A DNA stretch of 59,312 bases, filler included. It is 4 parts of 4 records of this genome, joined end to end, with 100 filler letters (N's around TTAATTAATTAA, not from the genome) between each part and the next. Parts side by side here need not be neighbours in the genome. Positions count along the whole stretch, not along the records: positions 47,253 to 52,769 come from SRR31156797_2822; 3 more parts are not named here. One strand, given 5' to 3'. The notes beneath the pieces are model-generated. The model was not told the origin of the DNA. It made no database searches and saw only the letters and a list, made by a program, of their open reading frames with translations. Made by a program: the position numbers and the translations under genes. Each line of letters opens with the position of its first letter. Positions within the stretch are counted from its first letter, which is position 1. Shown here one piece after another: positions 49,509 to 51,113 of this stretch.

Positions 49509-51113
49509 ATGCAACTTGCGGCCAACAGGGTGACACCCGGCAAAACCGATGCCGAAACAAGACTCCTAAACCAGGAGCTGGGCTTTTCGGCATCCTACAT
49601 GGCGATAAAGACCCTCAACCTCCGGGTTGAGCGGTCCCCCCACAGGGTGACGGACCAGACAGTGGAAGCCCTTGTCTCCGTCATCGAATCAAAGCGGTTC
49701 GACACCCGGAAGCAGGCCCTGTTTCTGTTCCGGGAATCGGCCGAAACCCTGGTTTCCATTCTCACCAGGGTCAAGGGAAGCCCGGGATCAATGGTGATTC
49801 CGGCACTTCAAAAAATCCTTGTCACCAGCATGGGCCACCGGCACAGGGCCGTTGGCGAGGCCCTTGGCTCCCTACCCCTTTCCATCCGGGCACCAGGGCT
49901 CCCCGAAACAGGGAATACCGAATTTTGTACCCTGCCCTTCCAGGAGATATTGGACAGGCTCGACATCGCCCGGGAAACGGAATTGACCTGGCGGGGCAGA
50001 AGCTTGACCGCCCCGGCCCGGAACGGCCGCACAGGGGTGATCAAATTTGTAAAAACCGGTGAAGACCCCTTTGCCCTGACCAATGAAACCGGATGGATGG
50101 ATTTTTTCGAGTCCGTCCCCGCCCTGCCCCTGACCGAATGTGACATTCCAGGCCCGGTGAAAAAGAATGGAATCGCCCTTTTTAAAATCGTTGATATCCC
50201 CCGGACGATCCGTCTGTCGGACAACCTTCACCCGGAACGATTCGCCATCGGTTTTTCCGCGGCAAAAACGTACTATGAGTATCCCAACGAACCCCTCCAT
50301 GCCGCAGTCCCCCTTGACCTGTCCGAAGTCCTGGGCCGCAATGCAAGGCTTCTGGGCACCACGTCAGCCATGGGTATCGTCCATACCGCGGTGATCCCCC
50401 TGTTTCACAACAGGGTGCAGCAAGACAGGCGGGAGGACGGGGGCATCTATGAATGGGAACGCAGCGGCAGGCTGGACCGGTGGCTTGAAAGCTGCCGCCA
50501 TCCCAATTTTGCAACCTCCGGCCTGAGGGACTTTGAACATTTCGATTCGATTCAACAGACCAAACGTATCCACCACCACATCGGCTCCCACCTCCTGAGC
50601 CTCATCCTTGTGGCCGGCAGTTTCTTCAGGAACCGCAGCCCTGAAAAACAGGGCAAGGACAACCAAGGCAATCCGGTGGATACACGGCAGCTCTTTGACC
50701 CCGCCCTGTTTGAAGAGGCGATCGCCTGTTCAGTGAACGCATACTATCTCGCTTTCACGGGGATTGAAACACCCCCGGCCTTTACCCGCCCGCCGGCGGG
50801 CTTTGTTGACGCCCTGATCGATGAAATGGGCGTTGACCGTCACATGGAGGAGGTCCTGCGGGTGGACGACCAGAACAGGATGGATTCGGATCAGTTTGAG
50901 CAATTCCTCCTGGAGCGGGGACTCCAAAAGGAAGAGATCGCCCGGTATGAAAAAGGAAAAGCCGAAATCACCCTTGACACCGGCCCCCACCTGGGGGGAT
51001 TCAACCAGGGGATATCGGTTCCACAGCTGATTGACTACATTTTCACCTGCGCGTCACTCATGGTCAGCGGCAGATACACCAGGGAAAACGGCTTGAAAGA
51101 AAGTTCGAATTAA
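49509..51113 (+). CDS. SidJ-related pseudokinase (candidate protein glutamylase)
   Basis: GRS (R164), VIK (K179), E193, FHNRVQQDRREDGGIY (H300/R308/Y314), GRLDRW (R321), PNFATSGLRDFEH (N333/D341), LGGFN (N499); order and spacing match Legionella SidJ as recalled. Confidence 0.85.
   Translation: MQLAANRVTPGKTDAETRLLNQELGFSASYMAIKTLNLRVERSPHRVTDQTVEALVSVIESKRFDTRKQALFLFRESAETLVSILTRVKGSPGSMVIPALQKILVTSMGHRHRAVGEALGSLPLSIRAPGLPETGNTEFCTLPFQEILDRLDIARETELTWRGRSLTAPARNGRTGVIKFVKTGEDPFALTNETGWMDFFESVPALPLTECDIPGPVKKNGIALFKIVDIPRTIRLSDNLHPERFAIGFSAAKTYYEYPNEPLHAAVPLDLSEVLGRNARLLGTTSAMGIVHTAVIPLFHNRVQQDRREDGGIYEWERSGRLDRWLESCRHPNFATSGLRDFEHFDSIQQTKRIHHHIGSHLLSLILVAGSFFRNRSPEKQGKDNQGNPVDTRQLFDPALFEEAIACSVNAYYLAFTGIETPPAFTRPPAGFVDALIDEMGVDRHMEEVLRVDDQNRMDSDQFEQFLLERGLQKEEIARYEKGKAEITLDTGPHLGGFNQGISVPQLIDYIFTCASLMVSGRYTRENGLKESSN

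Follow-up and report, generated by a model that had tools for sequence, protein, structure and literature searches.

We describe here a gene at positions 49509..51113 (+ strand) of a window of 59,312 nucleotides, by which we mean the whole stretch of DNA that was analysed, and its product, P0001, which is a full-length member of the NCBIfam family NF033874, the SidJ-related pseudokinases. By analogy with SidJ, the polyglutamylase effector of Legionella pneumophila, P0001 would be a calmodulin-independent, adenosine triphosphate (ATP)-dependent protein glutamylase with an endogenous substrate, and we put the probability of this function at roughly 0.55. An earlier note on this DNA, made from the letters of the sequence, had proposed a calmodulin-independent glutamylase or related ligase, and this seems to us the most reasonable proposal, sequence, profile and fold evidence being in agreement. 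The activity, the glutamate donor, the protein acceptor and the independence of an activator are what we infer for P0001 by this analogy. The gene is whole: it starts with ATG, has no internal TAA, TAG or TGA, and encodes 534 amino acids.

Against the NCBIfam model NF033874.1 ('SidJ-related pseudokinase') P0001 scored 623.5 bits (E value 2.9e-187; curated cut-off 300), and the match joins its residues 25-523 to model positions 2-506 of 507, that is, from end to end; a comparison with SidJ-related hidden Markov models had been suggested as a check by the earlier note. All motifs of the family are present, namely GR...K...E, PLFHNR..Q..RR.D.G.Y.W..GGRLD, PNF..SGLRDFEH and TGPHLGGFN. Conservation was examined in two sets of sequences, 23 relatives at 38-91% identity and 115 cluster representatives at 33-51% identity to P0001, and in both sets the columns of these motifs are either invariant or at least 90% conserved. 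The Legionella model NF033873 (SidJ family type IV secretion system (T4SS) effector polyglutamylase) gave 10 bits (E 0.2) and did not reach its cut-off of 400. A Pfam scan of P0001 assigned no family, the sole match being ASFV_p49 at E 0.34, and the PADLOC defence models likewise assigned none.

A word-indexed protein search returned 1179 proteins (E <= 0.001); the one ranked first is 91% identical and already carries the NCBI name 'SidJ-related pseudokinase'. An exhaustive profile search gave 593 clusters (at 50% identity) at E <= 0.001 and 224 at E <= 1e-30, mostly of 500-560 residues, and two cultured carriers are Desulforapulum autotrophicum HRM2 (HRM2_18850) and Desulfospira joergensenii. 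P0001 is therefore not new: the family has a name, and its catalytic residues have been recorded before, as has its lack of the calmodulin motif. The novelty implied by the earlier note was overrated, because a curated NCBIfam model names near-identical proteins and homologues lacking the IQ motif had been published. In the parts of two SidJ studies on which we draw, non-Legionella homologues with conserved catalytic motifs and without the IQ motif or SidE are described, one of them in a Desulfovibrio (PMC6858067), and homologues are reported from diverse organisms, archaea and viruses included, none of those outside Legionella having SidE or the IQ motif (bioRxiv 10.1101/2021.04.13.439722). 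The same portion of the latter text states that substrates and activation will probably differ in the non-Legionella homologues (bioRxiv 10.1101/2021.04.13.439722). Our literature searches, judged from the records listed, found no publication assigning a function to a non-Legionella member and none on a calmodulin-independent SidJ-type glutamylase, one listed paper dealing with sidJ recombination in Legionella; both literature statements agree with the remark in the earlier note that such homologues are known without an assigned function.

The residues of both active sites of SidJ are found in P0001. Residue pairs were counted in HMMER (phmmer) alignments to the SidJ chains in PDB, with 6k4k_A providing the full-length numbering. 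When P0001 was compared with PDB sequences, all four matches were SidJ chains (E 0.004-0.006), and a profile of 115 family sequences again matched SidJ only (4/4 distinct sequences, E 2.4e-19 to 5e-18). In the kinase-like site, R164, K179, E193, N333 and D341 of P0001 pair with R352, K367, E381, N534 and D542 of SidJ, and in the migrated pocket H300, R308, Y314 and R321 pair with H492, R500, Y506 and R522. The tenth pair, N499 with N733, places LGGFN on LGGYN and occurs only in a second alignment stretch that is sub-threshold by itself. All ten pairings listed in the earlier note were reproduced in this way, N499/N733 at the sub-threshold level, and its local spacings of 15, 14, 8, 6, 12 and 8 residues proved correct by count, being identical in P0001 and SidJ. 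The two local differences that it had named are also seen in the alignment: D341-F-E-H (341-344) occupies the position of D-L-G-D in SidJ, and the stretch between the tyrosine and the arginine is 9 residues shorter than that of SidJ.

Among the 23 relatives N499 is the only one of the ten residues that varies, and it is retained in at least 90%. In the more divergent set of 115, R164, E193, H300, R308, Y314, R321, N333 and D341 are invariant, while K179 and N499 are each kept in at least 90%; the other columns invariant in this set are H344, G492, P493, H494, L495, G496 and F498, and F342 and E343 reach at least 90%. From the SidJ alignments we place the kinase-like catalytic domain, with R164, K179, E193, N333 and D341-F-E-H, at residues ~140-530 (49926..51098, +). 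Within it, the catalytic-loop insertion of residues 292-332 (50382..50504, +), whose H300, R308, Y314 and R321 align to SidJ, is the predicted 'migrated' nucleotide pocket, and G-P-H-L-G-G-F-N at residues 492-499 (50982..51005, +), with N499 corresponding to SidJ N733, is predicted to form the second wall of that pocket.

The roles of these residues in SidJ are described in the portions of the two studies cited here. The ligands of pyrophosphate are R352 and K367, and those of the metals N534 and D542; H492 stacks against the adenine, Y506 walls the pocket, and the substitutions K367A, D542A and H492A each abolish activity (PMC6858067). The acyl-adenylate is stabilised by R500, N733, H492 and Y506, and R522 holds the donor glutamate in position; the R522A mutant still adenylates and has lost glutamylation, and the adenylated intermediate remains stably bound to the enzyme (bioRxiv 10.1101/2021.04.13.439722).

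The predicted fold points in the same direction. An AlphaFold model built with 115 sequences has a predicted local distance difference test score (pLDDT) of 93.0 and a predicted template modelling score (pTM) of 0.93, with segments 298-322 and 491-502 at pLDDT 77-97 and the catalytic-loop insertion (292-332) at 77-92; the model built with 23 sequences has pLDDT 81.5 and pTM 0.82. In Foldseek against PDB, a comparison proposed in the earlier note, SidJ chains fill the best 12 rows (E 2.7e-11 to 3.7e-9), and the rows beneath are chiefly ordinary kinases at E ~1e-3 to 1e-2. With VIA-align, the 115-sequence model matched all ten SidJ entries at Z 24.1-25.8; the alignments span 394-423 residues, of which 16-18% are identical, and the next entry was LxmK at Z 11.0; the 23-sequence model gave Z 18.5-20.5 against SidJ, and canonical kinases stand in the VIA-align lists at Z 8.7-9.6. 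P0001 also has the hallmarks of the kinase fold: bilobal folds are matched, and the beta3 lysine K179, the alphaC glutamate E193, N333 and D341 are conserved.

Ahead of the kinase-like domain lies a predicted HEAT-like helical domain of six or seven helices (residues ~12-120; 49542..49868, +) modelled at pLDDT >90. The VIA-align alignments begin at model residues 2-51 against SidJ 134-225, a region that falls in the helical base domain as the domains are named in the part of the SidJ paper used here (PMC6858067). Because the alignments start there, the N-terminal helices are probably the counterpart of the SidJ base domain in the model, and not an addition; the helical N-terminal region noticed earlier is real, but its description as added is doubtful. 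Longer relatives bear Pfam HEAT repeats at their N-terminal end (P0202, HEAT_2, E 4.9e-18), and on the model the HEAT-like helices of P0001 are likely to provide a candidate surface for substrate docking. At the other end, a motif scan of P0001 found no IQxxxRxxRK-type motif, and only 35 residues follow N499, as had been noted from the sequence. The only IQxxxR string, at 348, lies inside the kinase core in columns having no majority residue in the 23-sequence consensus, and the VIA-align alignments stop at SidJ 762-803, short of the calmodulin-binding IQ helix at 841. The top 19-residue Kyte-Doolittle mean of P0001 is 1.5, that is, there is no hydrophobic segment, and for this reason the sequence suggests a soluble protein that is probably cytoplasmic.

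We can outline how such an enzyme might work. The kinase-like cleft (R164, K179, E193, N333, D341) would bind ATP and metal, and adenosine monophosphate (AMP) would be moved to a carboxylate, most likely the glutamate side chain of a protein. The pocket in the catalytic-loop insertion (H300, R308, Y314, N499) would then hold the acyl-adenylate, and R321 would position free glutamate, whose amino group would attack to give an isopeptide-linked glutamate and AMP. No calmodulin should be needed, and the activity might be constitutive or subject to some other control; the independence of calmodulin is suggested because the helix bundle of the C-terminal domain (CTD), the IQ helix and the N-terminal regulatory region of SidJ are all absent.

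The gene belongs to a Desulfobacteraceae bacterium, a sulfate reducer of sediment. We searched for relatives in one genome per species and found 343 stretches that encode one, of which 80 were kept as loci. The closest locus is a Desulfobacteraceae metagenome-assembled genome, 91% identical at the protein level, and 75 of the 80 kept loci bear Desulfobacterota-type names, both of which bear out the earlier assignment to a Desulfobacterota organism. We also sampled 401 genomes of the phylum, 301 of the order and 14 controls, many of the assemblies being incomplete, and NF033874 was found at its cut-off in 90 of the 301 order genomes, 21 of the 401 phylum genomes and none of the 14 controls. The gene is single-copy in 5/5 genomes inspected, and tblastn of 72,556 plasmid and 50,697 phage records gave no match to P0001.

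Before the neighbouring genes are considered, the composition of the window must be mentioned. Paired 44-base runs of N at 16294-16393, 47153-47252 and 52770-52869 part it into four contigs, and the gene lies in the third of the joined pieces (47253-52769, 5.5 kb). The first piece has a guanine plus cytosine (GC) content of ~0.54-0.63; the second (16394-47152) lies at 0.31-0.38, with positive GC skew across most of its length, and the third and fourth have ~0.55 and ~0.5. The four pieces may stem from more than one organism, and gene context is therefore usable only inside 47253-52769. A promoter and terminator scan of this contig gave counts no better than chance (3 vs 2.1 and 9 vs 7.9 in shuffles).

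Upstream on this contig are guaA (GMP synthase; 47256..48536, +), whose 5' end is cut by the N run 47209-47252 and whose cluster has GATase, GMP_synt_C and NAD_synthase domains, and a gene for a coiled-coil protein (48540..49490, +), a single-pass membrane protein of 316 residues; guaA stops 3 bases before the coiled-coil gene, which itself lies 18 bases upstream of the SidJ-related gene. A 548-residue open frame at 47205-48851 (-), which is antisense to guaA and to the start of the coiled-coil gene and enters the N run, is taken for a shadow open reading frame (ORF) of a GC-rich coding region. For comparison, ORFs were called and clustered in the 80 loci, the target ORF being called in 78. 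In closer relatives the genes run from topA through a sensor kinase, efp, guaA and the coiled-coil membrane protein to the SidJ-related gene, followed by an MltD-like transglycosylase on the opposite strand and then by a GTPase and a tail-specific protease; dprA is also among the housekeeping neighbours in the relatives' loci. One recurring context of distant orthologues consists of DivIVA, PilT-like ATPases and a response regulator, and another of an epimerase, methionine aminopeptidase and PolA. In the 80 loci no secretion genes were seen, nor is the SidJ-related gene near those of phages or plasmids.

As in the window, the coiled-coil gene directly precedes the SidJ-related gene in 36 of the 78 loci with a called target ORF, where the gap measures 6-258 bases. 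Its product carries an acidic tail at the N-terminus and crosses the membrane by one helix, beside which a motif is conserved; it also has a long coiled coil and ends in a conserved I-x-E-x-x-L-x tail. In the acidic tail E31 is at least 90% kept and N33 invariant (18 sequences), and from the charges flanking the helix we infer that the N-terminus is cytoplasmic. A Pfam and NCBIfam scan of this protein found no family beyond coiled-coil noise, and the defence-system models gave only weak SMC-like matches, which we read in the same way. The family occurs in 201 of the 301 order genomes, with 61 genomes having both it and the SidJ-related gene, 29 the SidJ-related gene only, 140 the coiled-coil gene only and 71 neither. 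It is absent (E <= 0.001) from two of three genomes that have the SidJ-related gene in another context (G003 and G004), and by a rough count the two genes are adjacent in about five sampled genomes among the matches listed (G002, G623, G672, G646 and G615). An obligatory partnership with the coiled-coil protein can be dismissed on the co-occurrence result (odds ratio 1.07, p 0.89) and the absence from G003 and G004.

Downstream, 62 bases after the stop of the SidJ-related gene, is a small ORF (51176..51364, +) encoding 62 residues with four cysteines and two histidines. The same small ORF is just downstream in 35 of the 80 loci, plus one weak match, and 25 of its first 42 positions are invariant (20 sequences), far above the SidJ-related enzyme; a Pfam and NCBIfam scan assigned no family to it. 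A six-frame search found it in 225 of the 301 order genomes, 60 of them having both genes and 165 the small ORF only, with the SidJ-related gene only in 30 genomes and neither in 46; G002, a carrier of the SidJ-related gene, is one in which the small ORF was not found. With an odds ratio of 0.56 over the 301 genomes, it was rejected as a partner or substrate of the enzyme. Judging from its sequence, it looks like a real and widespread small metal-binding protein that is apt to be missed by gene callers, and a wrong-frame shadow ORF (cluster 28) overlies its DNA. As neither neighbour is phyletically associated with the SidJ-related gene, their adjacency is lineage synteny and does not constitute evidence of shared function.

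A hint concerning expression comes from the marine-sediment metatranscriptome X2, in which contigs are 92-99% alike over 49452-49844, 50748-50920 and 50910-51231. Those at 49452-49844 and 50910-51231, ~92% alike, bridge the junctions with the coiled-coil gene and the small ORF. They hint weakly at joint transcription of the coiled-coil gene, the enzyme and the small ORF in relatives, and DNA may be present in such metatranscriptome libraries. X2 leaves stretches of the SidJ-related gene uncovered, and the small shares found for runs X3 to X5 carry no evidential weight.

The glutamylase function has to be weighed against four other explanations. P0001 might adenylate as SidJ does and differ in the second step, either halting at AMPylation in the manner of SelO/YdiU or joining a nucleophile other than free glutamate. 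SidJ does auto-AMPylate, according to the part of the paper cited here (PMC6858067), the Y-to-R loop shortened by 9 residues lies beside the donor site, DFEH stands in place of DLGD, and YdiU is among the weaker fold matches (Z 10.0); the fold is nevertheless much nearer to SidJ (Z 24-26) than to YdiU, and R321, whose SidJ counterpart binds the gamma-carboxylate of the donor, is invariant in the 115 sequences together with H300, R308 and Y314, and an AMPylase would need no donor site. Because this donor-site arginine is conserved, we disfavour an enzyme that only AMPylates, and a differing second step is in our judgement unlikely. Somewhat less credence is due to an acceptor that is a small molecule or a cell-envelope precursor with a free carboxylate, in which case P0001 would be a metabolic amino-acid ligase of kinase fold. 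That guaA and a murein transglycosylase adjoin the gene in the closest relatives, that the context and co-occurrence tests gave no protein partner, and that homoserine kinase (Z 9.1) and amicoumacin kinase (Z 9.2) are weak fold matches would suit it. The only characterised relatives modify proteins, however, and the context is not kept in distant orthologues and so defines no pathway, while the conserved HEAT-like domain and the long HEAT arrays of relatives fit docking of a protein; a protein acceptor is favoured because of this domain and its expansion in relatives.

The name 'pseudokinase', together with the NCBIfam grade of hypothetical equivalog, would suit a pseudoenzyme in the strict sense, which binds nucleotide as a scaffold or sensor and does not catalyse, but every catalytic residue of SidJ is kept in the 115 representatives at only 33-51% identity, and the metal ligands and donor-binding arginine that are kept would be needless in a scaffold. 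Since the catalytic set is conserved, a dead scaffold is disfavoured and appears improbable. It is still harder to regard P0001 as a secreted, SidJ-like effector acting against a eukaryotic or bacterial neighbour, and we give this very little probability. All homologues characterised so far are type IV effectors of Legionella, and a horizontal spread of the family is suggested in the cited part of the preprint (bioRxiv 10.1101/2021.04.13.439722), but P0001 has no signal peptide, hydrophobic segment or IQ motif and falls far short on the SidJ T4SS-effector model (10 bits, cut-off 400). The neighbours are moreover housekeeping genes with no secretion genes in the 80 loci (a secretion system may lie elsewhere in the genome), no plasmid or phage copies were found in the records searched, and the hosts are sediment sulfate reducers. 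An endogenous protein substrate is probable: the gene is single-copy, its context is of the housekeeping type, its product lacks secretion signals, and secretion, phage or plasmid genes are not nearby.

Several observations weigh against a calmodulin-independent protein glutamylase with an endogenous substrate. NF033874 is graded in NCBI as a hypothetical equivalog, that is, a family without a characterised member. The gene context is wholly different in more distant orthologues, the neighbourhood furnished no clue to a substrate, and neither neighbour is associated with the gene across the order, the odds ratio showing no association for the coiled-coil family and no positive association for the small ORF. 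D545 of SidJ has no conserved counterpart, D346 of P0001 not being conserved in the family; D545A had little effect in SidJ, according to the portion of the paper used (PMC6858067). In the 23-sequence model the pocket segments 298-322 and 491-502 have pLDDT <50 and are the least confident parts. Finally, SidJ binds ATP only with calmodulin, as stated in the part of the preprint cited here (bioRxiv 10.1101/2021.04.13.439722), and P0001 could therefore be inactive until bound by another factor.

If P0001 is a glutamylase as we propose, a broader reading suggests itself, which we offer tentatively and rate somewhat below even chances: kinase-fold glutamylation may also be an ordinary, activator-independent modification in free-living sulfate reducers, in which the enzyme caps a glutamate and thereby switches off or tunes a conserved cytoplasmic protein. 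Within that reading, the enzyme of the guaA/coiled-coil/SidJ-related lineage of Desulfobacteraceae might act on the acidic N-terminal tail, presumably cytoplasmic, of the coiled-coil protein, a target to which the co-occurrence tests over the order genomes lend no support.

If a member of the family proves active, kinase-fold amino-acid ligation would no longer be confined to a pathogen effector but would belong to normal physiology in environmental bacteria, and sulfate reducers, key organisms of the marine carbon and sulfur cycles, would gain a newly recognised regulated target. What is added here is a confident model (pLDDT 93), the frequency of the family (90/301 in the order, 21/401 in the phylum) and the exclusion of the two neighbours as phyletic partners, and cultured strains with family members suited to testing the glutamylase hypothesis have been identified. 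The significance of P0001 itself is modest: the family already has a name, P0001 is unremarkable within it, the window by itself adds little to the physiological question, and a substrate would raise its weight.

When P0001 is compared with other NF033874 proteins, such as those of D. joergensenii and HRM2_18850, the length class of ~520-560 residues and the invariant residues are the same, and there is no difference of substance; P0001, read from a metagenome contig, simply adds to their number. A second SidJ-like family, without a name, is represented by HEAT/SidJ-like proteins of ~1140 residues in other Desulfobacterota (L084:1342-4785 and L085:1178-4597). These share a SidJ-like kinase core and score about equally, at 49-56 bits, on both NCBIfam SidJ models, under both cut-offs; they are twice as long as P0001, with a long N-terminal HEAT region, and the L084 gene is followed by mutS2. 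Their match ends at profile position ~335, so that the second half may differ. One genome (G095) has both the ~1140-residue form and a 534-residue form. Separately, the SidJ-related domain is complete inside several long proteins, namely P0250 (1890 residues, with TPR repeats and a methyltransferase), P0254 (2502 residues, with an M23 peptidase domain), P0261 (2425 residues) and P0220 and P0247 (~840 residues). The fusion partners in eight long relatives (HEAT, TPR with methyltransferase, M23 peptidase) had no common theme.

Among known structures, the next-best folds after SidJ are those of vaccinia virus E2 (7phy, Z 12.2), LxmK (9dk3, Z 10.5-11.0) and SelO/YdiU (9jym, Z 10.0), all of which are atypical kinase-fold proteins. 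They reach about half the Z of SidJ, with 198-234 residues aligned against ~400, and none of them was matched at the sequence level in the phmmer or family-profile search of PDB. The closest characterised system is SidJ of L. pneumophila, a calmodulin-dependent protein glutamylase, with its paralogue SdjA (PDB 6k4k, 6oqq, 7mir and 7ppo, among others). Unlike P0001, SidJ is an effector, translocated by Dot/Icm and acting on SidE-type substrates, and the part of the preprint cited here reports no SidE homologue in organisms other than Legionella (bioRxiv 10.1101/2021.04.13.439722). The disordered N-terminus, the N-terminal regulatory region, the regulatory strands, the CTD helix bundle and the IQ helix of SidJ have no counterpart in P0001, whereas the kinase-like fold with its catalytic-loop insertion, all ten residues and the helical domain ahead of the kinase domain are shared by the two proteins.

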